Positions 1,747 through 48,077 of a DNA stretch of 64,000 bases are shown one piece after another. Source of the DNA: Longimicrobiales bacterium. GTDB lineage: Bacteria > Gemmatimonadota > Gemmatimonadetes > Longimicrobiales > Gaopeijiaceae. The notes under the pieces are model-generated. The model was not told where the DNA came from and ran no database searches. It saw nothing but the letters and a program-made list of their open reading frames with translations. Numbering within the stretch: the stretch's first letter is position 1; every line of letters starts with the position of its first letter. The DNA lies in the NCBI GenBank assembly GCA_965213665.1, contig CBDBZW010000002.1, positions 48,064-112,063 on the forward strand, given 5' to 3'. The position numbers and the translations under genes are program-made.

Positions 1747-3072
1747 ATGAAACGGACCAAGAAAACGGTCAGTGGCGTCGCGGCCTTCCTGGCGGCGTTT
1801 ACGCTCACGGCCTGCGACCTTGAGGTTCTCAACCCGGGTTCGATCCTGGACGAGGATCTCGTCACGCGGGACCTGATGCCGATCCTGGTGTCGGGCGTTT
1901 CCGCGGAGTTCAACGACATCGGCGATCTCTATGCCTTCAATGTCGCGCGCCTGACCGACGACCTGTCGGGCACGGGCAGCTACTTCACAACCGGCAAGTA
2001 CCGCCGGGGCGCCTTCGACAACGAGGACTCCGAGGGGTTCTGGGAGCAGACGCACGAAGCGGCGTGGGCCGCGGGCGGCGCCTGGGAGAGGCTTCAGGAG
2101 GTGCTTGAGGGCGAAGCGAATTCCTTCGACGGGTCGGCGCGCGTCTTCCTGCTGATGGGGCTGGCGCACCGCATTCTCGGCGAGAACTTCTGCGAGGTTG
2201 TCTACGACATCGGCCCGCTGCAGCCGCGCACGGCGTCGTTCGACAGCGCGATCGTGGCGCTCAACCAGGCGATCTCGATCGGTGGGTCCGCGGGGGCGAG
2301 CGACTTCGTGACCGCGGCGCACGGCGGCATCGCGCAGGCCAATGTGGGACTGGGCAACTGGTCGGCGGCGGCGCAGGCGGCCTCCATGGTGCCCACCGAC
2401 TTCGTGCACAACGCGATCTACCACCTGACGGCGAACAGCAACACCGTATGGAACGAATCGTGGGGACGGGCCGAGGTCGGGGTCTGGGCGACGCCGGCCC
2501 AAACCGTCTACGATGGCGATCCGCGCGCACCCTACACGATCTGCGGCTCCTGGAACGATCCCACCGATCCGACCAAGGGCGTCACGCCGACGGGCGTTTG
2601 CACCGGTCAGGGCAGCGGCGCGCACCAGGGGGCCGACGGACTCACCGCGCACTACCGGCAGGACAAGTACAACGAGTCCGGGAGCGACATACCGATTGTG
2701 AGCGGCACCGAGATGCGGCTGATCGAAGCCGAGGCGGCGCTGATCGGCGGCGATCTTGCGACCTTCACGGCGAAGGTGAACGAGGTTCGAGCCTTCTACG
2801 GCGCGGACCCGATCGAGCAGCCGGCCGCGGTGGGCGCCATGGAGTTCCCGAATGCGCTGGACGACGCGGCGTCGATTCTGGACCGCGAGCGCTACCTGAC
2901 GCTGTGGATCGAGGGGCGGCGGCTCTTTGATCTCGACCGCTGGAACCACCCCTTCCTCCAGGGCGGAACGCTGATCGGCCCGGGCGAGGAACCACGCATT
3001 TCGTGCATGCCGATCCCCGAGATCGAGTGCACGCTGAATCCCGAAATCCAGAACTCATCGGTTTGCACCTGA
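1747..3072 (+). CDS. SusD/RagB-family nutrient-binding outer-membrane lipoprotein
   Basis: Lipoprotein signal MKRTKK...AAFTLTAC. The C-terminal ERYLTLWIEGRRLFDLDRWN pattern is typical of SusD. It sits immediately downstream of the SusC-like gene. Confidence 0.75.
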   Translation: MKRTKKTVSGVAAFLAAFTLTACDLEVLNPGSILDEDLVTRDLMPILVSGVSAEFNDIGDLYAFNVARLTDDLSGTGSYFTTGKYRRGAFDNEDSEGFWEQTHEAAWAAGGAWERLQEVLEGEANSFDGSARVFLLMGLAHRILGENFCEVVYDIGPLQPRTASFDSAIVALNQAISIGGSAGASDFVTAAHGGIAQANVGLGNWSAAAQAASMVPTDFVHNAIYHLTANSNTVWNESWGRAEVGVWATPAQTVYDGDPRAPYTICGSWNDPTDPTKGVTPTGVCTGQGSGAHQGADGLTAHYRQDKYNESGSDIPIVSGTEMRLIEAEAALIGGDLATFTAKVNEVRAFYGADPIEQPAAVGAMEFPNALDDAASILDRERYLTLWIEGRRLFDLDRWNHPFLQGGTLIGPGEEPRISCMPIPEIECTLNPEIQNSSVCT

Positions 3073-3089
3073 GTTGACTGGAGCTTTGT

Positions 3090-3131
3090 GGTGGGGTCGG
3101 CGCCGCGCGGGAGCGCGGCGCCGACCCCACC
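3090..3131 (+). terminator. Perfect 19-bp stem / GGGA loop hairpin after the SusD-like gene
   Basis: GGTGGGGTCGGCGCCGCGC-GGGA-GCGCGGCGCCGACCCCACC starts 18 nt after the stop codon. There is no U-tract, so intrinsic-terminator function is inferred. Confidence 0.5.
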
Positions 3132-3232
3132 ATGCGTTGCCAGGCGGCGGGCTGGGATGATTCTGCGGGATCCAATTCCTCACAGTCCGGCGATGTCTTG
3201 AAATCTGAACATCCAATGTTCATATTTCATAG

Positions 3233-4390
3233 ATGTTTCTCCCCCGCCCCACCCATCTGGCCGAACTTCGGCGCAAGCTGAGCGACAATCCGGTCGTCGC
3301 GCTCCTCGGTGCGCGGCAGGTCGGCAAGACCACTCTGGCCCGTCAACTGGGGGCGGAGTTCGGTGCCCCGGCACACTTCGACCTTGAGGATCCGCGCGAC
3401 CTCGCGCGCCTCGACCAACCCACCCTCGCGCTGGAACCCCTTCGCGGCCTGGTCATCATCGACGAGATCCAGCATCGTCCGGATCTCTTCCCCATCCTGC
3501 GCGTCCTCGCGGACCGCCCCGCCCGTCCCGCCCGCTTTCTGGTTCTCGGCAGCGCTTCCCCAACCCTTCTGCGCCAGAGTTCGGAGTCGCTCGCCGGACG
3601 CCTCGGCTATCATGAACTGACCGGCTTCGACCTTCGCGAGACCGCCGGTGAACCGCATGAACGCCTCTGGCTCCGGGGCGGGTTTCCCCGTGCCTGGCTG
3701 GCCCGCGACGACGCCCGCAGCCTGGAATGGCGACGCGACTTCATCCGCACCTTCGTCGAGCGCGACCTTCCCGGCTTCGGCATCACCCTTCCCCCGAGGC
3801 TCCTGCACGATTTCTGGACGATGCTGGCCCACTATCACGGCCAGAGCTGGAACGGATCGGAGCTGGCGCGCGCATTCGGAGTTTCGCACACAACCGTGCG
3901 GCGCTACCTGGAGATCATGACCGGCGCCTATGTCGTGCGACAGCTTCGCCCCTGGTGGGAAAATATCGGCAAGCGGGTGGTCAAGGCGCCAAAGATGTAC
4001 ATCGCCGACAGCGGCCTGCTGCACGCCCTCCTGGACATCGAAAGCGACACCGATCTGGCCCGGCACCCCAAGGTCGGAGCCAGTTGGGAAGGATTCGGGC
4101 TTGCGCAGGTTGTCCGCCAACTGGGAGCGCACCCCGGGGAGTGCTACTTCTGGTCGGTTCATGGAGGAGCGGAGCTGGATCTGCTGGTGGTGCGCGGCCA
4201 GCGACGAATCGGCTTCGAGTTCAAGCGCACCGACGCCCCAAAAGTCACCCGCTCCATGCGGTCGGCGATCGACGCGCTACGGCTGGACAGCTTGGATGTG
4301 GTCCACCTGGGCAGCGAGAGCTGGCCAATGGGGAACGGAATCCGCGCGGTGGCCGGCCGGCGGATCCTCGCCGAGATTGCGCCGCTGTAG
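3233..4390 (+). CDS. AAA-type ATPase with a C-terminal DUF4143-like domain
   Basis: Walker A LLGARQVGKTTLA and Walker B GLVIIDEIQ. The C-terminal ...GGAELDLLVVRGQRRIGFEFKRTDAP pattern is typical of the AAA_14/DUF4143 family. Confidence 0.75.
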   Translation: MFLPRPTHLAELRRKLSDNPVVALLGARQVGKTTLARQLGAEFGAPAHFDLEDPRDLARLDQPTLALEPLRGLVIIDEIQHRPDLFPILRVLADRPARPARFLVLGSASPTLLRQSSESLAGRLGYHELTGFDLRETAGEPHERLWLRGGFPRAWLARDDARSLEWRRDFIRTFVERDLPGFGITLPPRLLHDFWTMLAHYHGQSWNGSELARAFGVSHTTVRRYLEIMTGAYVVRQLRPWWENIGKRVVKAPKMYIADSGLLHALLDIESDTDLARHPKVGASWEGFGLAQVVRQLGAHPGECYFWSVHGGAELDLLVVRGQRRIGFEFKRTDAPKVTRSMRSAIDALRLDSLDVVHLGSESWPMGNGIRAVAGRRILAEIAPL

Positions 4391-4486
4391 GGAACGGGGC
4401 CGACGCTTTCGGGCACCGCGTTCGCTGCCTGGGCAGAGAAGCACCCCACGACAGACCGGCGCTCGCTGGCCCCTGGCGACGCCGAA

Positions 4487-6989: not shown

Positions 6990-9914
6990 CTACGCCACCA
7001 GCCCCAACCTCCTCAGCGCGGCCCGAATCCTCTCCAGTTGCTCCCGTTGCGTTGCGGTGGGCGGGTGTAGCGTTCCCTGGCGCACGCCGCCGCCATTGAT
7101 TGCGCTGTAGAGCTGCATGAGCCCGCGGCGGTATCCGGCGGCCTCGCCCTGCGCGTCTTCAAGCTGGCGGCTCATCTCGAGGATCTCCAGCAGAAAGGCC
7201 TCGCGTTCGCGGTAGTCCTCGGCGGTGAGCGGCAGATCGGGGTCGCCCTCCACCGACAGGTGCCGGGTTACGCGCTGGCCGCGCGCGTCGAGCTCCAGGG
7301 TAAAGACTCCCGGCGAGACGAAGGGACCGCGCGTCTCGAGCGTTCGCGGCACCACGGCCGGGTCGTGCGGCGCCCAGTCGTCCGCCGCGTCGGGGGCCAT
7401 GCCGTGGCGCAGATCCCAGTTCACGCGGTGCAATCCGGGCCCCGAAGGCACCTGCAGCGTCCGCACCGCATCGCCCGCGCCGTTGCGCACCGTGAGGGTG
7501 GCCGGTCCCGAGCCGGGGCCGAGCCGGTAGGTGACGACCGTTCCGTCTACCGGGTTCTCTCCCGCGAAGAGTGCCTGCGCCCGGTACGAGGTGTCCTTCC
7601 AGTAGTTCATGATCGTACCGGGGCGGGGCGCGAAGAGGTGGACCGCGTCGGCCGTGGCGGCCGCGTGCCCGGCGAGGGGGCCGATGTCGTCCACGATGAT
7701 GATTGAGCGGCCGTGCGTGCCCAGGACCAGATCCTTCTCGCGGCCGTGGATCACCATGTCGTCGTAGGCGGTGGTGGGGAGCGTGGGAAAGCGCGCCCAG
7801 GATTCGCCGCGGTCGGTGCTGGCGAAGACGTGGTGCTCGGTGCCGACGAAAAGAACCTGCGCATTGTCCGGGTGCTCGACGATCGCATTGACCGACCCCG
7901 ACGGGAGGCCCGCGTGAAGCGCGATCCACCGCGCCCCGAAGTCCTCTGCGCGGTAGACAAAGGGCCGGAAATCTCCGTCGCGATGTGCGTCAAAGGTTAC
8001 ATAAGCGGTGCCGCGCAACTCCGACGAAGCGAGGACGCGGCTGACGTAGGCGCCGTCGGGCAGGCCGGGAGCACCGCCCGACACTTCATCCCAACTCCTG
8101 CCTGCGTCGCGCGTGACCTGAACGTTGCCATCGTCGGTGCCAACCCACAGCACCGAAGGGTTGTGCGGTGACTCGGCAATTGTGACAATCTCGCCATAGG
8201 ACGAGGTGCCGTCGTTGCGCGACAGAGCGATATCCGCGCCGCGCACGCCCATGATCGCCAGCGTGTCGCGGTCCACCTGCCGCGTGAGGTCCTCGGTGCG
8301 CTCGAAGCTGTCGCCCCGGTCGCGGGAGATGAAGAGGCGGTTGCCGCCCAGGTAGACGGTGTTGGGGTCGTGGCGCGAAATCAGGCTTGGGCTGACCCAA
8401 TCCCAGCGGTAGTCCTCCTCGCCCTCGGGAGCGGTCAGACGCAGGCTCATCATGTCGCCGGTGCGGTTGTCAAAGCGCGTCCAGCCGCCGTTTTGCGTGT
8501 TGATGTAAATGGTGCGGCCATCGGGGTCGGTCTGCTGGTACATTCCATCGCCGAAGCCGCTCTGCCGCCACTCGTCATCGACAATTCCCTCCCAGGAGCG
8601 CGTGGCCGAGGGGCCCATCCAGGAGTGGTTGTCCTGCATTCCGCCATAGATCCGGTAGGGGTCGCGATTGTCCACCGCGATGCCGTAGAACTGGCCGATG
8701 GGAAGGTTGTGAATGCGCCGGAAGGTGACGCCGCGGTCGTAGCTCTCGTGCAGTCCCGCATCGCCGGCAAGGTAGAGGTGGTCGGGGTTGGAGGGATTGA
8801 TCCACATGGTGTGGTGGTCGGCGTGAACGCCCACATCGTAGGTGGGACGCTCGGCGATCTCGGTGAAGGTGCGCCCGCCGTCCTCGCTGCGGTGCGACGA
8901 GGTGGCCAGGGTGTAGACGCGGTTCTCGTCGGTGGGGTCGATGAAGATGTGCGAATAGTACATGGGGCGGATGTTCTGGTCGCTCACCTTCTGCCAGGTG
9001 TCGCCGCCGTCGGTGGTGCGATAGCCGCCCGATTCCTCCGCGTGCTCGATCAGCGCGTTGAGGATGCGCGGGTTGGTCTCGGAGATTGCGATCCCGATGC
9101 GGCCCTTGTCGCCCGCGGGCAGTCCGTTGACGAGCTCGGTCCAGGTGTCGCCGCCGTCGGTGGTGCGGTAGATGCCGCCACCGGGGCCGCCGCCATTGAA
9201 TCCCCAGGTGCGGCGCTGGCGCTGATACATGGCCGCAAAGAGCACATTCGGGTTGGCCGGGTCGATAACGAGGTCGGTCGCGCCGGTGTGTTCGTCAATG
9301 TAGAGAACCTTTTCCCAACTTGCGCCGCCGTCGCGCGAACGATAGACGCCGCGGTCGGGGGAGGAGCGCCAGAGGTTGCCCAGCGCGGCCACATAGACGA
9401 TTTCGGGGTCTCCGGGGTGAACGCGCACGCGCCCGGTGTGACGGGTCTCGTCCAGCCCCAAATGGCGCCAGGTGGCCCCCGCGTCGTCGGAGCGGTAGAC
9501 GCCGTTGCCCCACGAAGTGCTCTGCCGGTTCTGCTGTTCGCCGGTGCCCGCGTAGAGGATGTCCGGATTCGAAGGCGCAATCGCCAGGTCGCCAAAGGTG
9601 CTGACCGGCATCCGCTCCCAGAGATTCGTCCAGGTGATGCCCCGGTTAACGCTCTTCCACAACCCCCCCGAAGCGGTCGCGACGTAGAGCGTAGAGGGAT
9701 CGAAGGGGAGCGCCTCGACATCGTGAATGCGGCCGCCGGTCACCGCCGGGCCCACATGGCGGACGCTGAAGGCGGCAAGGTCCGCGGAGGTGAGGGACTG
9801 CTGGGCCTGCGATTGCCGGGGGCCAAGTACCGTGGGAGCGGCGAGGGCCAGGGCAAGGCAGAGCGCGAGGGGGCGGGGAAAAGGACTCCTGGAGGGCTGA
9901 ATCGGTGCAGTCAT
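6990..9914 (-). CDS. Secreted BNR/Sortilin-Vps10-type repeat protein (glycosyl-hydrolase-like beta-propellers)
   Basis: Signal peptide after the internal ATG at 9914. Many SxDxGxTW-type repeats are present (SDDAGATW, SRDGGASW, TTDGGDTW, SEDGGRTF, TRDAGRSW, STDRGESW). Confidence 0.75.
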   Translation of the reverse strand: MTAPIQPSRSPFPRPLALCLALALAAPTVLGPRQSQAQQSLTSADLAAFSVRHVGPAVTGGRIHDVEALPFDPSTLYVATASGGLWKSVNRGITWTNLWERMPVSTFGDLAIAPSNPDILYAGTGEQQNRQSTSWGNGVYRSDDAGATWRHLGLDETRHTGRVRVHPGDPEIVYVAALGNLWRSSPDRGVYRSRDGGASWEKVLYIDEHTGATDLVIDPANPNVLFAAMYQRQRRTWGFNGGGPGGGIYRTTDGGDTWTELVNGLPAGDKGRIGIAISETNPRILNALIEHAEESGGYRTTDGGDTWQKVSDQNIRPMYYSHIFIDPTDENRVYTLATSSHRSEDGGRTFTEIAERPTYDVGVHADHHTMWINPSNPDHLYLAGDAGLHESYDRGVTFRRIHNLPIGQFYGIAVDNRDPYRIYGGMQDNHSWMGPSATRSWEGIVDDEWRQSGFGDGMYQQTDPDGRTIYINTQNGGWTRFDNRTGDMMSLRLTAPEGEEDYRWDWVSPSLISRHDPNTVYLGGNRLFISRDRGDSFERTEDLTRQVDRDTLAIMGVRGADIALSRNDGTSSYGEIVTIAESPHNPSVLWVGTDDGNVQVTRDAGRSWDEVSGGAPGLPDGAYVSRVLASSELRGTAYVTFDAHRDGDFRPFVYRAEDFGARWIALHAGLPSGSVNAIVEHPDNAQVLFVGTEHHVFASTDRGESWARFPTLPTTAYDDMVIHGREKDLVLGTHGRSIIIVDDIGPLAGHAAATADAVHLFAPRPGTIMNYWKDTSYRAQALFAGENPVDGTVVTYRLGPGSGPATLTVRNGAGDAVRTLQVPSGPGLHRVNWDLRHGMAPDAADDWAPHDPAVVPRTLETRGPFVSPGVFTLELDARGQRVTRHLSVEGDPDLPLTAEDYREREAFLLEILEMSRQLEDAQGEAAGYRRGLMQLYSAINGGGVRQGTLHPPTATQREQLERIRAALRRLGLVA

Positions 9915-10023
9915 CAGGTGTGGTTTCTCCTGGGTGCTTGGATGGCGTGCGGCGGGATGGCAGGAAGTTGCCAACAAGTCAACGGGGTCTGCACCTGTAA
10001 GTCAACCGGGGGACCGCCGTTCG

Positions 10024-10671
10024 CTACTGTTGCTCCGCCACGCCAAACACGCGCTGGAACCAGGCGACAAACCGCTCCGTGGCAACGCTGTCGACCCCGA
10101 AATAGCGAGCTTTGATCGCGATGCCGTACGGGCGCCCCGGCTCCCTCTGCCAAGCCAGCCACGTATGGAGCTCTGCCTTCCGGCTGTTTCCATCGGAGTA
10201 TTGGGCCCCGAGCTGCCTCGCCCGTCGTGCGGAGGCTTCAGCATGGGGAAGCAAGGGATCGCCCTCGCCGATCAGATCCCGCAGAAAGTCCTCCAATGCG
10301 CCCGTCTTCCGATTGTCCGGCATGAGCCACACGCCCACCCGGGCACCGTAGGTCGTCGATTCACCTGCAAAGCCAGACTCGGGAATCTCGTCCGGGGCTG
10401 GAATACCGACGTTGCTCAGTTGCGCGGTGACCGCCTTCCAGGTGTCTTGCGGACTGTTGTTGGCGTCCAACACAAAGCCGACCGACTGGCCGGTTCCAGC
10501 TTTGACGGCGACGGGGATGGCAGCAAGCACTTTCCGCTTGCCCCCCGCAACCCTGAAGTCCGGCAGGGCATGGCGATCGAATCCACACTGAATCAGCAAG
10601 TGGCCGATCGCGTGCTCGTCGTCCGAGCCCTCCACATACAGCAGGTGACTGTCCCCGGCGGGTCGAGTCAT
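10024..10671 (-). CDS. Small Toprim-like / DUF3226-like protein, partner of the upstream ABC ATPase
   Basis: ATG at 10671 shares one nt with the ATPase stop (TGATG); an alternative TTG lies at 10674. The N-terminus reads SHLLYVEGSDDEHAIGHLL, followed by FVLDANN and WLMPDN..GALEDF acidic motifs. The family assignment is from memory and has not been searched. Confidence 0.6.
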   Translation of the reverse strand: MTRPAGDSHLLYVEGSDDEHAIGHLLIQCGFDRHALPDFRVAGGKRKVLAAIPVAVKAGTGQSVGFVLDANNSPQDTWKAVTAQLSNVGIPAPDEIPESGFAGESTTYGARVGVWLMPDNRKTGALEDFLRDLIGEGDPLLPHAEASARRARQLGAQYSDGNSRKAELHTWLAWQREPGRPYGIAIKARYFGVDSVATERFVAWFQRVFGVAEQQ

Positions 10672-11741
10672 CAACGGAGCTCGATGCTGAGGTCGGCCGC
10701 GGTAACAATGTCTTCCGCACCGAAGCTCACGCTCTGATCCAGTTGTCGTTCGATCTTATGGACGGACACCGCCTCTCCCAGGTTCGGCTTCTTCCTGAGC
10801 AGCGCCGCAAGGCCGACGATGCAGTCCAGGCTATGCGTCGTGGCAAAGACCTGAATCGACGCTGCAACTGCCGCGTCAATGACGAGATTCCACATTTCCT
10901 CCATGATGGTCCAATGAAGTCCGGTGTCGATCTCGTCGATCAGGAGAAATCCCCCTGCGGTCCGTACCAACGAAAGCGACAGCGCAAGGAGACGACGCAT
11001 CCCGTCGCCGTGGCTGCCGATAGGAATGCGTGGACGGCCGTCCCGGAATCCAAGCAGGACGCCACCGAGACCACCGCCGCTTCCCGCAGAATCGCCGGTA
11101 AGAAAGTGTATCGATTGCAGATCCTTCTGGAGGATCCTCATGGTTTCGACCACTTCGAGTTCCCGCCCCTCGCGAATGACCCGGTTCCAGGAACCGGCCA
11201 TCTCACGGGTGTGCAGCGACTCGGCGGTAACGAACTGAACTGGGGGTTTCGTCGAGCGCATGCTCGCCGCGTGCCGCACCGCCCGTGCACTCCAATCAAG
11301 AGAACCGTTCTCGGTGAGGGGAAACCGGATAGGATCCTCGTCGCCTCCCGCCCGGATCGACAGAGCCAGGGGTTGACCGGTGAAGATATCGGCAGTTTCG
11401 CCGAGTTCACCTTCGACGATGCGAATCCGAACCCGACCAAACCCGTCACGTGAGGAGACGGCAAGAGAAACGCCGGGTTCTAGGGTGTGGCCGTGGAAAT
11501 GGTGGCGCAGGGGGTAGCGGACAACCCGTGCCCGGTCCTCTCCACTGTGCGACTCCGACCGACGCCGTGCCGATTCGACCAGAACACGAGGATCTCCCTG
11601 GGACACGAGGAGCTGAACGGCTTCCAGCACCGAGGTCTTCCCACAGTTGTTGGGACCGACGAGCAGGTTCACCGTGCCCAGTTCGCGAAGCCGGTACGCC
11701 TCAAAGCCCCGGTAGCTTTCCAGTTTGAGGGTGCGGATCAT
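10671..11741 (-). CDS. ABC-type (AAA_21/AAA_15-like) ATPase
   Basis: Walker A GPNNCGKTS, signature-like SHGDGMRRLLALS, Walker B FLLIDEIDTGLH, H-loop FATTHS. The start was chosen at MIRTLKLESYRGF, typical of this family; an upstream TTG at 11780 is possible. Confidence 0.8.
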   Translation of the reverse strand: MIRTLKLESYRGFEAYRLRELGTVNLLVGPNNCGKTSVLEAVQLLVSQGDPRVLVESARRRSESHSGEDRARVVRYPLRHHFHGHTLEPGVSLAVSSRDGFGRVRIRIVEGELGETADIFTGQPLALSIRAGGDEDPIRFPLTENGSLDWSARAVRHAASMRSTKPPVQFVTAESLHTREMAGSWNRVIREGRELEVVETMRILQKDLQSIHFLTGDSAGSGGGLGGVLLGFRDGRPRIPIGSHGDGMRRLLALSLSLVRTAGGFLLIDEIDTGLHWTIMEEMWNLVIDAAVAASIQVFATTHSLDCIVGLAALLRKKPNLGEAVSVHKIERQLDQSVSFGAEDIVTAADLSIELR

Positions 11742-11804
11742 AGCCAGGGTTCCAGGCTTGGGCGGGTCAGCATCTCGCAAGGGAGTCCGGTCACTCGTGA
11801 AGCC

Positions 11805-13550
11805 CTACTCGGCCGGATCCACCCGCAAGGTGACGATGTCGGTGTCCTGGTAGCGGTGGTGACGGACGGAGCTGGCGAGGTGGCGCAGCAGCCGCAGCGA
11901 GAACTCGTGCCGTTCGGGTTGGGCCGCCGCATGGCCGCCGATCACCGCGAGCTGGTCTTCGATATTGGCCTCCGCGCCCGACGCCAGAAACTCCAGCTCG
12001 GCGCCGCCGCCGTCGGCCACGACGGTCAGTCGCAGTCTGCGCAGCCGGGTGGGGGCGCCGTCCTCTTCGTCCTGCCCGGTGAGCAGCAGGAGCGTTTCTT
12101 CCGCAGCCTGGGTCAGACGGGTTGTCGTGCCGCCCGCCAGTCCCCGTGCACCGGCGAAGTCCTCCAGGAACCGACGGATGCGATCCAGTGAATCCACCTC
12201 CAGGGTGGTGTCGAGACGCTTGCGGCGCGGTCCCGAGAGCTCGACGAAGGTGGTCAGCAGGAGCGCGGTGAGTCCGCCCGAGGTCATGCCGTTCGAGAGC
12301 ATCTGTGCGAGGAAGGGCGAGAGTGCCTCGGTGGGGATCTGGCCGTTCTGGAAGCCGGCGCCGACCCAGAACGAGACGCCCACGATCGTGGCCTTGCGGT
12401 AGTCCATTCCGTCCTGCACCACGATCCGCGCGCCCAGCATGAAGAGGACGGCGATGATGACCATGATAAAGCCGCCGATCACCGGATTGGGGATGCTGAG
12501 CAACAGGGCGGCGAACTTGGGGAAGAACGCCAGGACGCAGAGGATGAGGCCGATGCAGAGGCCGACGCGCCGGGCCGCGATGCCGGTGATCTCGGCGATT
12601 GAGACGCTGCTCGAATAGGTGGTGTTGGGCACCGTGCTGAAGAGTCCCGACAGGAGATTGCCGAGGCCGTCCGCGGCGACCGCTCCCTGGACTGCGCGGT
12701 AGTCGGTGGCCCGCGGCTCGCGCCAGGAAACGCGCTGAATGGCGACCGAATCGCCGATGGTTTCGATTGCGCCGACCACGGTGACGAAGACGAAGCCGGG
12801 CAGGAGCGCCCAGAAGGCGGGGCCGAGGTCGAGGCCGAACCCGGGCCAACCGCCGGGAACGCCGAACCATGCCGCCTGCACAAGAGGGGCGCCGTCGAGG
12901 ATGCCGTAGTACCAGGCCGCGATGCAGCCCGCGCCGACGCCGATGAGCGGACCCCAGACGCGCGCAGGACCGGAGGAGCGCAGGAGCACCGCCAGCGTGA
13001 CGCCGAGGGTGGCCAAAGCGACCGCCGGACCCGCAACGGGATCGGCGCCGGCGGGGAGATCGCCCAGGAAGTCGAAGACGAAGGGCATCACATTGACCGC
13101 GATCAGCATGATGACCGTGCCCGCGACCGTCGGGGTTATGAGCCGCCGCAGCAGCGAAAGCCGTTGCGCAAGCACGAACTGGAAGAGCGACGAGACGACG
13201 ATCAGGGTGGCGAGGAGGAAGGGACCGCCCTCCTGCAGCGCGGTCACCGCCACCGCCATGAAGGCGGCCGAGGTGCCCATCATGAGGACATAGCCCGCGC
13301 CGAAGCGGCCGACGCGCACCGCCTGCACGACTGTGGTCAGGCCGCTGACCAGGAGCGCCGCGAAGGCCCCCCACGCCAGATAGTCCTCGCCGCCCCCCGC
13401 GCTGCGGATCACGATGGCAACGCTGAGCACCGTTCCCCCGACCGCGGTGATGCAGTACTGCGCCGCGAGTCCGGCCGACAGCGCCCACGCCGGCTTCTCG
13501 TCGGCCTGGTAACGAATGGCGGATTCCCTTCCGCCCGATGGTGCAGTCAT
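11805..13550 (-). CDS. Nucleobase:cation symporter (NCS2, xanthine/uracil permease family) with a roughly 150-aa cytoplasmic C-terminal extension
   Basis: Multi-TM protein with the NCS2-type segment ...AVQGAVAADGLGNLLSGLFSTVPNTTYSSSVSIAEITGIAARRVG. The soluble tail runs LDTTLEVDSLDRIRRFLEDFA...TVVADGGGAELEFL. The start ATG at 13550 overlaps the upstream stop (ATGA). Confidence 0.8.
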   Translation of the reverse strand: MTAPSGGRESAIRYQADEKPAWALSAGLAAQYCITAVGGTVLSVAIVIRSAGGGEDYLAWGAFAALLVSGLTTVVQAVRVGRFGAGYVLMMGTSAAFMAVAVTALQEGGPFLLATLIVVSSLFQFVLAQRLSLLRRLITPTVAGTVIMLIAVNVMPFVFDFLGDLPAGADPVAGPAVALATLGVTLAVLLRSSGPARVWGPLIGVGAGCIAAWYYGILDGAPLVQAAWFGVPGGWPGFGLDLGPAFWALLPGFVFVTVVGAIETIGDSVAIQRVSWREPRATDYRAVQGAVAADGLGNLLSGLFSTVPNTTYSSSVSIAEITGIAARRVGLCIGLILCVLAFFPKFAALLLSIPNPVIGGFIMVIIAVLFMLGARIVVQDGMDYRKATIVGVSFWVGAGFQNGQIPTEALSPFLAQMLSNGMTSGGLTALLLTTFVELSGPRRKRLDTTLEVDSLDRIRRFLEDFAGARGLAGGTTTRLTQAAEETLLLLTGQDEEDGAPTRLRRLRLTVVADGGGAELEFLASGAEANIEDQLAVIGGHAAAQPERHEFSLRLLRHLASSVRHHRYQDTDIVTLRVDPAE

Positions 13551-14425
13551 GGTTCTCTTCCTCCGGTTGCGGCCAGCGCCTCGTTCACCGCCGTCACCAC
13601 GGCAAGCGGCAGATCCTCGATCTTGTCCAGCATCCACTCCAGGTAATCGGGGTGCGCGGCCGCCACGGCGTCCAGCCGCTGATCCTTGTGCTTGCCCCGC
13701 TGGAAGACAAGTCCCCCCTGCGCCTCGCGGAACCAGCGCTCAATGGGGGTCGCGAAGGGCCTGATCCGGTCGCAGTAGGCGTGAAGTTCACCCATGTCGC
13801 CGGGCAGCCTGGAATAGCGCGCCAGTTGCGCAGCCAGCACCGCCGCGGTGATGCGCGTGTCCCCTTCGGCGCTGTGGGCGTCGTCGTGTTCGCGGTCGAG
13901 GTAGAAGCGAGCCGCCGCCGCCAGATTGCGCGGTTCCTCGTGGTGGAAAATCTGCTGCACATCGATGACGCGCCGGTCCTCCATGTGGAAGCGCACGCGC
14001 GCGCGGTCGAACTCGTTGAGGAGGAAGGGCAGATCGAAGCTGCGGATGTTGAATCCCGCCAGGTCGCAGGGCTCAAGCAGTGTGGCCAGCGCCTTCGCGC
14101 GTCTCTGAAAGGGCGCCTCGCCGGCCACGTCCTCGTCGCGAATCCCATGAATCCGCGATGCCTCGTCCGGAATCGGCATCTCGGGATTGAAGCGGCGCAC
14201 GCGGCTCACCTGTTCACCATCGGGCCGGACCAGGAGCACGGCCATCTCCACGATCCGGTCCTGGGCGGGGTTAAGTCCGGTCGTCTCCAGGTCGAAGAAG
14301 GCGAGCGGGCGGTCGAGCTTGAAGTCGAAGCTGGTTTCCACGGGGGGATTGGTCGGCTGGTGGGGGGACCGGTTGCTTGCCACGGGGGACCGGTTGGCTG
14401 GCCGGGGGGATTGGATGGCTTGCAT
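13547..14425 (-). CDS. DnaQ/epsilon-like DEDDh 3'-5' exonuclease
   Basis: Motifs FFDLETTGL, IHGIRDEDV, AGFNIRSFDLPFL and HSAEGDTR. The start is uncertain: ATG 14425, GTG 14341 (which would give METSFDFKLDRPLAFFDLETTG) or GTG 14500. Confidence 0.75.
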   Translation of the reverse strand: MQAIQSPRPANRSPVASNRSPHQPTNPPVETSFDFKLDRPLAFFDLETTGLNPAQDRIVEMAVLLVRPDGEQVSRVRRFNPEMPIPDEASRIHGIRDEDVAGEAPFQRRAKALATLLEPCDLAGFNIRSFDLPFLLNEFDRARVRFHMEDRRVIDVQQIFHHEEPRNLAAAARFYLDREHDDAHSAEGDTRITAAVLAAQLARYSRLPGDMGELHAYCDRIRPFATPIERWFREAQGGLVFQRGKHKDQRLDAVAAAHPDYLEWMLDKIEDLPLAVVTAVNEALAATGGREP

Positions 14426-14465
14426 GGGTGACCGGCTGGATTTCGCGGGGGTCCGCCTTGTCCAT
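14342..14465. repeat. Tandem array of six 19-22-nt units at or just upstream of the exonuclease start
   Basis: Units: ggggggattggtcggctggt / ggggggaccggttgcttgccac / gggggaccggttggctggcc / ggggggattggatggcttgcat / gggtgaccggctggatttcgc / gggggtccgccttgtccat. Unit lengths vary and are not all multiples of 3. Confidence 0.8.
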
Positions 14466-14514
14466 GGCCGGATAGTGTAGCGCAAGGCGGGCGGTTGCAC
14501 ACATATTGCGGGTC

Positions 14515-47911: not shown

Positions 47912-48077
47912 GGATCCTTCTCCGCTTGGTGTGGTGTGGGTGGGCTTCTCACGCTCTCATCAATATCGAAGGGTCAGGCGGCCCCGCAAGAAGCAATGAT
48001 CCCTGAGCATCGGACGTGGAATCAGGAGATGCCTGCCAGACGCCGCTGTGGGCGTTCATCGCTTCCTCCGCGGTCCG

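Follow-up and report, generated by a model that had tools for sequence, protein, structure and literature searches.

The 64,000-nucleotide stretch of DNA analyzed here (the window), which covers positions 48,064 to 112,063 of contig CBDBZW010000002.1 from a Longimicrobiales bacterium, carries two overlapping genes, here called A and B, that encode an ATP-binding cassette (ABC) ATPase and a small protein of the DUF3226 family. The locus is a further, divergent member of a candidate defense family that is already catalogued, PDC-M38, within a known architectural class, and it is therefore real but not new. The open reading frame listing gives two minus-strand frames, 10671..11780 for A and 10024..10674 for B. 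The frame of A would specify 369 amino acids from a TTG and specifies 356 from the ATG at 11741, the TTG lying in frame 13 codons upstream of that ATG. The ATG is confirmed as the start of gene A because the database twin of the protein (P0391) is also 356 amino acids long and the consensus of the A family starts with MIRTL. The frame of B gives 216 amino acids from a TTG and 215 from the ATG at 10671. At the junction (...cgtTGATGact...) the stop codon of A and the start codon of B overlap by one base. The two genes are as follows:

10671..11741, minus strand: gene A, 356-amino-acid ABC-type ATPase (AAA_21/AAA_15; PADLOC PDC-M38A), presumed sensor or regulator (Pfam, PADLOC, AlphaFold2 model, Foldseek)
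10024..10671, minus strand: gene B, 215-amino-acid DUF3226 protein (PADLOC PDC-M38B), predicted two-metal nuclease of Toprim-like type, helical toward the C-terminus, presumed effector (Pfam, PADLOC, AlphaFold2 model, Foldseek)

A and B form an obligate pair that is inherited together and has no third partner, and gene B is translationally coupled to gene A. We compared 80 species-representative genome loci with a homolog of B, and at 78 of them a homolog of A lies directly upstream on the same strand, mostly with an overlap of 1 or 4 nt; of the two exceptions, one (L062) has B at a contig edge and the other (L070) is without a detected A homolog. The pairwise distances of the A and B proteins are correlated (r = 0.85), a value that was reached by none of 999 permutations. 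There is no conserved third gene in the 80 loci, the commonest cluster of neighbors occurring at six of them and 621 of the 825 neighboring proteins being singletons.

Two irregularities of the gene pair were seen among these loci. At roughly 8-10 of the 80, the DUF3226 frame is split or truncated beside an intact ATPase gene (L010, L014, L028, L032, L049, L053, L058, L060, L063 and L082, with B near position 10000), and since many of these are long-read metagenome-assembled genomes (MAGs), the split frames could be sequencing errors and not real decay of the nuclease. Additionally, a single 574-amino-acid frame in L037 (7619-9343) matches both the ATPase, over model positions 1-280 of 383, and DUF3226. 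We considered this frame as an A-B fusion that would signal physical interaction and rejected it, because its ATPase part ends at model position 280 of 383, which makes a frameshift or decay likelier than a true fusion.

Protein A matches AAA_21 (9e-20) and AAA_15 (1.5e-18) in Pfam, and among the 114 PADLOC families that it matches, PDC-M38A ranks first (PDLC04611, 7e-61), followed at a distance by AbiLi (9e-39), AriA (2e-24), GajA (6e-15), NsnB (5e-14) and mad3 (7e-11). No NCBIfam model scored above its own cut-off for protein A or protein B. The AlphaFold2 model of A (pLDDT, for predicted local distance difference test, 85.5) is a standard ABC head, and its nearest structures in Foldseek are PtuA of Septu and retrons, the heads of SMC and Rad50, the OLD protein of Thermus scotoductus and GajA (E 1e-13 to 1e-10). 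Between Walker A and the signature lies a short insert that is mostly beta, with no long coiled coil. All of the ABC/AAA_21 motifs for which the first-pass annotation of this DNA had singled out the gene, as well as the TGATG overlap with a 215-amino-acid partner, are where it had placed them. We assessed the conservation of the motif residues across 52 homologs:

11631..11657, minus strand: Walker A/P-loop, GPNNCGKTS, A residues 29-37 (G29, N31, G34 and T36 invariant, K35 in at least 90%)
10992..11015, minus strand: ABC signature-like motif, SHGDGMRR, A residues 243-250 (S243, G245, G247 and R250 invariant)
10914..10949, minus strand: Walker B and D-loop, FLLIDEIDTGLH, A residues 265-276 (D269, G274 and H276 invariant, E270 in at least 90%)
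10830..10844, minus strand: H-loop, ATTHS, A residues 300-304 (A300, T301 and H303 invariant)

As the residues of Walker A, the signature, Walker B and the H-loop are invariant or nearly so, A is a catalytically complete ABC ATPase and should be active.

Protein B matches Pfam DUF3226 (PF11536) at 8.6e-51 (173.1 bits, the cut-off being 27), the match covering positions 2-207 of the 208 in the profile, so that the "DUF3226-like" label first attached to it can be replaced by full-length membership, and the same family is matched by all 77 divergent relatives of B that we examined. In PADLOC it matches PDC-M38B alone (PDLC04624 at 3.5e-38 and PDLC04623 at 2.6e-26). Neither Pfam nor PADLOC gave a match of B to AriB, AbiLii/RloB (none at E ≤ 1), DUF4435, DUF4276 or mad4, and an exact-protein database lookup of the B of the window returned no record. 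The family is large: at E ≤ 1e-3 it comprises 2,243 clusters at 50% identity, nearly all of them stand-alone proteins of about 215 amino acids.

Is B a nuclease of the Toprim type, as the spacing of its acidic motifs had suggested at the outset? Its AlphaFold2 model, a confident one (pLDDT 87.6, predicted template-modeling score 0.83), runs b1(10-13)-a1-b2-a2-b3(63-69)-a3, an extra strand (101-105) and b4(110-117), followed by a helical C-terminal region (residues 126-209), and this order of strands and helices in the model fits a Toprim-type core. In a Foldseek search of the Protein Data Bank (PDB), six of the top eight matches were C-terminal regions of OLD proteins (6NK8, 6P74 and 6NJW/X/V; probability 0.84-0.98), aligned over the full length of B at E 5e-3 to 6e-2 and TM-scores of 0.37-0.49. 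Among the 77 relatives, PF20469 (OLD-like_TOPRIM) gives weak, sub-threshold matches in nine (best E 0.0017); every other secondary family is seen in three members at most, DUF4435 appearing in two of the 77 at E ≥ 0.27. The sequence of B has no significant match in the PDB, the best being Ure2 and acetylcholinesterase at E of about 0.3, and the DUF3226 family profile finds sub-threshold PDB matches only, AriB twice among them over the E...DxD region (E 0.69 and 1.1).

The residues themselves are more telling. The conservation values below refer to the 77 relatives, which extend down to 33% identity:

10594..10644, minus strand: putative Toprim motif 1, LLYVEGSDDEHAIGHLL, B residues 10-26, with E14 after strand b1 and D18 four residues on (E14 in 77/77; position 18 D in 73, E in 4)
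10456..10476, minus strand: DxD-type motif FVLDANN, B residues 66-72 (D69-A-N71), at the end of strand b3 (D69 in 76/77)
10285..10326, minus strand: acidic cluster after strand b4, LMPDN....GALEDF (LMPDN 116-120, LEDF 126-129; D119 and E127), candidate second-metal ligands (P118 in 76/77, N120 in 76/77, E127 in 76/77, G124 in 77/77)
10123..10182, minus strand: start of the C-terminal helical region, (R)KAELHTWLAWQREPGRPYG, conserved, the helices of the model occupying residues 141-209 (K165 in 75/77, W171 in 77/77, W174 in 76/77)

Position 119 is D in 59 of the relatives and N in 13. In the catalytic site of OLD nucleases, metal A is held by a glutamate after b1 and by the DxD motif, and metal B by an acidic residue four positions past that glutamate together with residues after b4; the site is completed by a lysine or arginine that, in class 2 OLD, comes from the C-terminal helical domain (PMC7049728). 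The glutamate and its partner at E+4 are E400/E404 in Burkholderia pseudomallei (Bp) and E377/D381 in T. scotoductus (Ts) (PMC7049728). Judged from the alignment and the model, E14, D18 (E+4), D69-x-71, D119/E127 and K165 of B would fit this two-metal template position by position, and by analogy K165 is a possible counterpart of K562 of Bp OLD (PMC7049728). Such conservation is a stronger argument than the fold matches for considering B a Toprim-type nuclease. Several observations weigh against doing so. The Foldseek search returned nothing from the PDB at E ≤ 1e-3, so that the Toprim assignment rests on fold and sequence scores that are not significant; there is no Toprim match of B in Pfam; and at position 71, which is D in 60 of the 77 relatives, the window and 38 of its 44 close relatives have N, meaning that its clade carries DxN and not DxD. 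The Toprim-type fold first proposed for B is thus upheld by the residue pattern and by the preponderance of OLD regions among the fold matches, and is weakened on these three counts. Overall, the sequence and the model of B agree with a two-metal, OLD-like Toprim nuclease whose C-terminal region is helical, and the mapping gives DUF3226 a concrete active-site hypothesis (E14, D18, D69/N71, D119/E127 and K165).

Where does the pair stand among known systems? ABC ATPases with Toprim partners have been listed as OLD classes 1-4 (including Gabija and PARIS), AbiL (with an RloB partner) and MADS3-4 (with a DUF4276 partner), and DUF3226 is not on that list (PMC11464382). In the literature searched, no main text names DUF3226, PF11536 or PDC-M38. 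AbiLi is the best named relative of A, and AbiL is likewise a two-gene system of an ABC ATPase and a small Toprim-like protein of similar sizes, but its partner AbiLii is RloB-type whereas B belongs to a different family. PARIS (AriA + AriB, OLD class 4) also resembles the window in having the ATPase and the Toprim-type nuclease in separate, adjacent, co-evolving genes, and A matches the AriA models. However, AriB is a DUF4435 protein of roughly 35 kDa and B a DUF3226 protein of 215 amino acids, and AriA (53-55 kDa) is much larger than A (about 39 kDa). The C-terminal region of class 2 OLD (Burkholderia and Xanthomonas; 6NK8 and 6NJW), with its Toprim core and helical region, provides the best, though weak, fold matches of B and has a like pattern of conserved residues, with E, an acidic E+4, DxD (DxN in the clade of the window), acidic positions past b4 and a lysine among the helices. 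In OLD classes 1-3, though, ATPase and Toprim form one chain and in the window they are two genes; class 2 also adjoins a UvrD-like helicase and class 3 has a reverse transcriptase, whereas the neighbors in the window are a permease and a BNR-repeat protein.

MADS Mad3-Mad4 and Menshen NsnB/NsnC-DUF4276 offer a parallel of another kind, as they, too, combine an ABC ATPase with a small "DUF" protein newly recognized as Toprim (PMC12065111), but B has no DUF4276 or mad4 match and no methyltransferase or other MADS or Menshen gene is adjacent. Similarly, PtuA of the Septu and retron PtuA-PtuB systems is the closest fold match of A (E 3e-13) and is an ABC ATPase that controls a separately encoded nuclease, but the effector PtuB is an HNH nuclease and not Toprim-like, and PtuA is larger than A and has helical inserts.

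We therefore place the pair in DUF3226/PDC-M38, because it is there, and not in OLD, PARIS, AbiL, MADS or RecF, that the defining features are present: the A model and the B model of PADLOC are both matched, and the two genes adjoin on one strand with A before B. The window pair shares with PDC-M38 both models, the gene order and the two-gene make-up; the models also recognize relatives carried by a viral contig, by a Plesiomonas replicon and by Klebsiella plasmids. Within the family the window pair is a divergent branch, B scoring 3.5e-38 where the relatives on L087 and L095 score 4.5e-76 and 1.3e-52. It also stands alone between housekeeping genes and, unlike the loci behind the PDC-M38 nomination, is not embedded in a BREX, DISARM or R-M locus. 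The suggestion in the first-pass annotation of a PARIS/AbiL/OLD-type module consequently stands as to architectural class, A being near AbiLi, AriA and GajA, and falls as to membership, B lacking the partner families of those systems. The combination with a different small subunit, which it also proposed, is not an unrecognized architecture; PADLOC already models exactly this pair.

The flanks of the pair are informative about its origin. Both flanking genes are on the same strand as the pair, and their identification agrees with the BNR-repeat protein and NCS2 permease that had been recognized at first reading:

6990-9977, minus strand: Sortilin/BNR-repeat protein, flanking gene, real start probably the ATG at 9914
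11805-13637, minus strand: Xan_ur_permease (NCS2, xanthine/uracil-type), flanking gene
9950..11770, no strand assigned: segment present in the window and absent from the relative L088 (approximate extent, DNA alignment)

Relatives of the permease in Gemmatimonadota MAGs are 79-71% identical. The closest of these loci, L088, shares the gene order of the window: periplasmic binding protein, M28 peptidase, zinc dehydrogenase, RNase_T exonuclease, permease, BNR protein and, further on, SusD. There, the stop of the permease is followed after 104 nt by the start of the BNR gene, with nothing in between. The two sequences are similar up to and including the permease stop and become so again about 40 nt ahead of the BNR ATG at 9914, and tblastx against L088 gave no counterpart for about 9837-11747. 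Composition, too, sets the pair apart: its GC content is 0.60-0.64 versus 0.65-0.72 in the flanks, in agreement with what had been judged by eye, and GC at third codon positions (GC3) is 0.686 in A and 0.75 in B versus 0.822 +/- 0.045 (minimum 0.70) in the other 32 genes of the window, which puts A three standard deviations below the host genes. This is a feature of the family: among 65 loci, 97% have a pair that is lower in GC than the flanks, with a mean difference of 6 points. The best non-self homologs are 71% (B) and 75% (A) identical and are spread over several phyla, Bryobacterales, Bacteroidota and Gemmatimonadota among them.

At the borders we found no terminal inverted repeats, target duplications or recombinase, and also no convincing promoter or terminator, single promoter-like and terminator-like matches falling inside genes. 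The pair is a horizontally acquired, bare 1.8-kb cassette with neither recombinase nor terminal repeats nor third gene, and the empty site in L088 is unusually clean evidence for its movement in that form. That the pair is an autonomous, conflict-type module unrelated to its neighbors, as was proposed before any of these comparisons, is borne out by the empty site, by the foreign composition and by the travel of the two genes together through unrelated contexts; its function in defense is a matter of inference.

What are these contexts? The hosts of the 80 loci include Longimicrobiales, Latescibacterota, Vicinamibacterales, Spirochaetia, Rhodothermales, Planctomycetota, Entotheonella, Poriferihabitaceae and sponge cyanobacteria. 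In a Bacteroidota MAG (L001/L002, 11745-18975) the pair is followed by a 1,388-amino-acid protein, whose only match is an MqsA-antitoxin domain, and then by a 956-amino-acid MmeI-type restriction-modification (R-M) enzyme, and another homolog has transposases, a PD-(D/E)XK protein and a further AAA_21 ATPase in its surroundings. In Plesiomonas (L095, NZ_CP027853.1, 36-9600) the pair is a few kb downstream of P2-like tail genes (tape measure, tail protein X and gpD-like), a position that we presume to resemble the defense hotspots of P2-like prophages.

A distant branch, annotated as "ATP-binding protein" and "DUF3226 domain-containing protein," lives on plasmids. Its B is 25% identical to the B of the window (in pKpn114) and matches PDC-M38B at 3.9e-11, and its A matches AbiLi best (1.9e-58) and then PDC-M38A (7.9e-44). 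Certain 3.8-4.2 kb ColE1-type plasmids from Salmonella, Escherichia coli and Klebsiella pneumoniae (pKpn114, L096, NC_011640.1, where the pair is at 560-2307; also L097 and L093) carry this pair and, apart from it, replication and mobilization functions only. About 136 Klebsiella plasmid records match this branch, and such plasmids are common in clinical K. pneumoniae. In the literature pKpn114 occurs in plasmid lists only, and the review that lists it gives no function. On an Acinetobacter plasmid the pair adjoins a BrnT/BrnA toxin-antitoxin pair.

These findings bear on one explanation that would make the pair an ordinary cellular function, namely a housekeeping DNA-repair module like that of RecF, an ABC ATPase, and RecR. 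RecR is a Toprim protein that acts with an ABC-type ATPase, and A does have a weak, N-terminal recF match (TIGR00611, 8.5e-8). Yet that match, at 31.7 bits, falls far short of the cut-off of 172; the close relative L088 lacks the pair at this site; the composition of the pair is foreign to the host; and its distribution over the phyla is patchy, no other sequence being more than 71-75% identical. Moreover, it rides on small plasmids, and the conservation of the full set of catalytic acidic residues points to a nuclease. A repair role seems to us very improbable.

What, then, would such a cassette do? ABC-ATPase and Toprim pairs are a proven defense architecture (PMC11464382; PMC10568477), and PDC-M38 itself comes from the work of Payne et al. 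(bioRxiv 10.1101/2024.01.29.577857), where its entry is in the supplementary decision table. That study nominated 145 "phage defence candidates" for cassettes embedded inside BREX, DISARM or type I R-M loci, and it is because of such embedding that PDC-M38 was nominated. In the same study HEC-04, an ATPase-TOPRIM fusion, gave phage protection (10.1101/2024.01.29.577857). On the side of defense we also count the neighbors of some homologs described above, namely the MmeI-type R-M enzyme, the transposases, the additional AAA_21 ATPase and the P2-like prophage tail genes. We consider it somewhat better than an even bet that the pair, as a self-contained and horizontally acquired PDC-M38 cassette, is an abortive-type defense module of the ABC-ATPase + Toprim class, a reading drawn by analogy.

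By the same analogy (PARIS AriA-AriB, Septu PtuA-PtuB and OLD), dimers or oligomers of the ATPase would keep the nuclease inactive until a phage-derived trigger, either a protein or an aberrant nucleic-acid structure, altered the state of the ATPase; the nuclease would then be released or opened and would cut nucleic acid, host tRNA or DNA, so that growth of the infected cell would stop. Relatives in the class cut either target, AriB and P2 OLD acting on tRNA and Gabija and Vibrio OLD nicking DNA. More broadly, the chances seem to us evenly balanced that DUF3226 is an unrecognized OLD-like two-metal Toprim branch that, with a minimal AbiLi-like ATPase (about 360 amino acids, no coiled-coil insert), makes up a new, widespread family of abortive defense or plasmid competition, common in the phyla of sponge symbionts and of soil.

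A number of findings count against a role in defense and keep our confidence in check. Payne et al. termed the 145 candidates, PDC-M38 included, "untested," and HEC-01, a two-gene ABC-ATPase + TOPRIM candidate, gave no defense in their assays (10.1101/2024.01.29.577857). The 138 genes that immediately flank the pairs are mostly ordinary metabolic ones. A test for enrichment beside defense genes, as proposed at the outset, gave at least about 11 defense-type genes among those 138 (further ATPases of the AAA_15/21 kind, PDC-S01 and methylases of type II, with a displaced A homolog in L049 as one of the ATPases), compared with at least about 6-8 among 150 control genes four to six positions away, a slight excess that is not convincing. 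The family is also almost absent from viral collections: among 2.9 million IMG/VR contigs there is one relative, 25% identical, and among 50,697 phage records there is no member. With no match in a viral structure library either, we rejected a viral origin of the pair.

Could the pair be maintained for its own sake? A selfish addiction or stability module, toxin-antitoxin-like, would consist of a nuclease toxin restrained by the ATPase and would be kept through killing on loss or through plasmid exclusion and not through phage protection. The small ColE1-type plasmids on which the pair is the only cargo, with their about 136 Klebsiella representatives, speak for this, as do the BrnT/BrnA neighbor on the Acinetobacter plasmid, the single insertion of the pair among housekeeping genes and not in defense islands, and the Pfam text for AAA_21, which describes a "putative AbiEii toxin, Type IV TA system" domain. 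True defense systems, however, are also common on small plasmids, and plasmid context therefore does not discriminate. In addition, the nearest characterized architectures (PARIS, Septu and OLD) are phage-triggered. We also count on this side the broken B frames beside the ATPase gene in about 8-10 of the 80 loci, which are possibly sequencing errors given the many long-read MAGs among them; addiction predicts that loss of the toxin is tolerated and loss of the antidote lethal. On balance we think addiction unlikely.

The same plasmid distribution can be turned in another direction, in that the pair may target other mobile DNA, such as plasmids or transforming DNA, with an SMC-like ATPase sensing DNA ends or topology and the Toprim protein cleaving. 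The fold of A is equally close to SMC/Rad50 heads and to defense ATPases, the Toprim partners of ABC ATPases include DNA-cleaving systems (Wadjet and OLD; 10.1101/2024.01.29.577857), and the family is rare in viral collections and present on plasmids. The architecture of A argues otherwise: because it is small (356 amino acids) and has no long coiled coil in the model, its insert being short and mostly beta, SMC-type loop extrusion or DNA entrapment is unlikely. Nor is a kleisin or any other partner gene conserved in the 80 loci. We hold an anti-DNA function of this kind to be distinctly unlikely, and continue to favor phage-triggered, abortive-type defense.

Taken alone, the locus adds little, as a standard PADLOC run would label it PDC-M38 and the class of ABC ATPases with Toprim-like partners is well populated. 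The ColE1-type Klebsiella plasmids that carry the pair, though, make an easy experimental system, and they raise the question of whether "cryptic" plasmids affect susceptibility to phage therapy.

Some further observations concern the surroundings and hosts of the pair. In the spacer between B and the BNR gene there is a 12-nt direct repeat, at 9976-9987 and 9999-10010 (on the minus strand CCCCGTTGACTT / CCCGGTTGACTT), each copy containing the -35-like TTGACT. The matching spacer at the empty site of L088 lacks this repeat, which may be a promoter or operator that was brought by the cassette and now stands before the BNR gene. Among the closest homologs, sponge-associated hosts are frequent (L028, L038, L041, L061, L062, L066 and others), among them Entotheonella, Poriferihabitaceae, Candidatus Synechococcus spongiarum and Aphanocapsa feldmannii, and the family may be especially common in sponge symbionts.

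Two other genes of the window attract defense-related models. One, at 13547-14500 (minus strand), encodes an RNase_T/DEDDh exonuclease that matches PADLOC PDC-S48 at 6e-28 and a Cas-associated DEDDh model at 3e-27; because its synteny is conserved in L088, we read it as probably housekeeping. The other, at 3233-4390 (plus strand; within about 3070-4480), encodes an AAA_14 + DUF4143 ATPase that matches the PADLOC candidate PDC-S01 at 1.1e-78 and, like the pair, is without an equivalent at this position in the syntenic L088. We see in it what looks like another, independent insertion, of one gene, at a distance of 5.6 kb from the pair; the PDC-S01 family, at 6 of the 80 loci, is also the commonest neighbor of the pair elsewhere.

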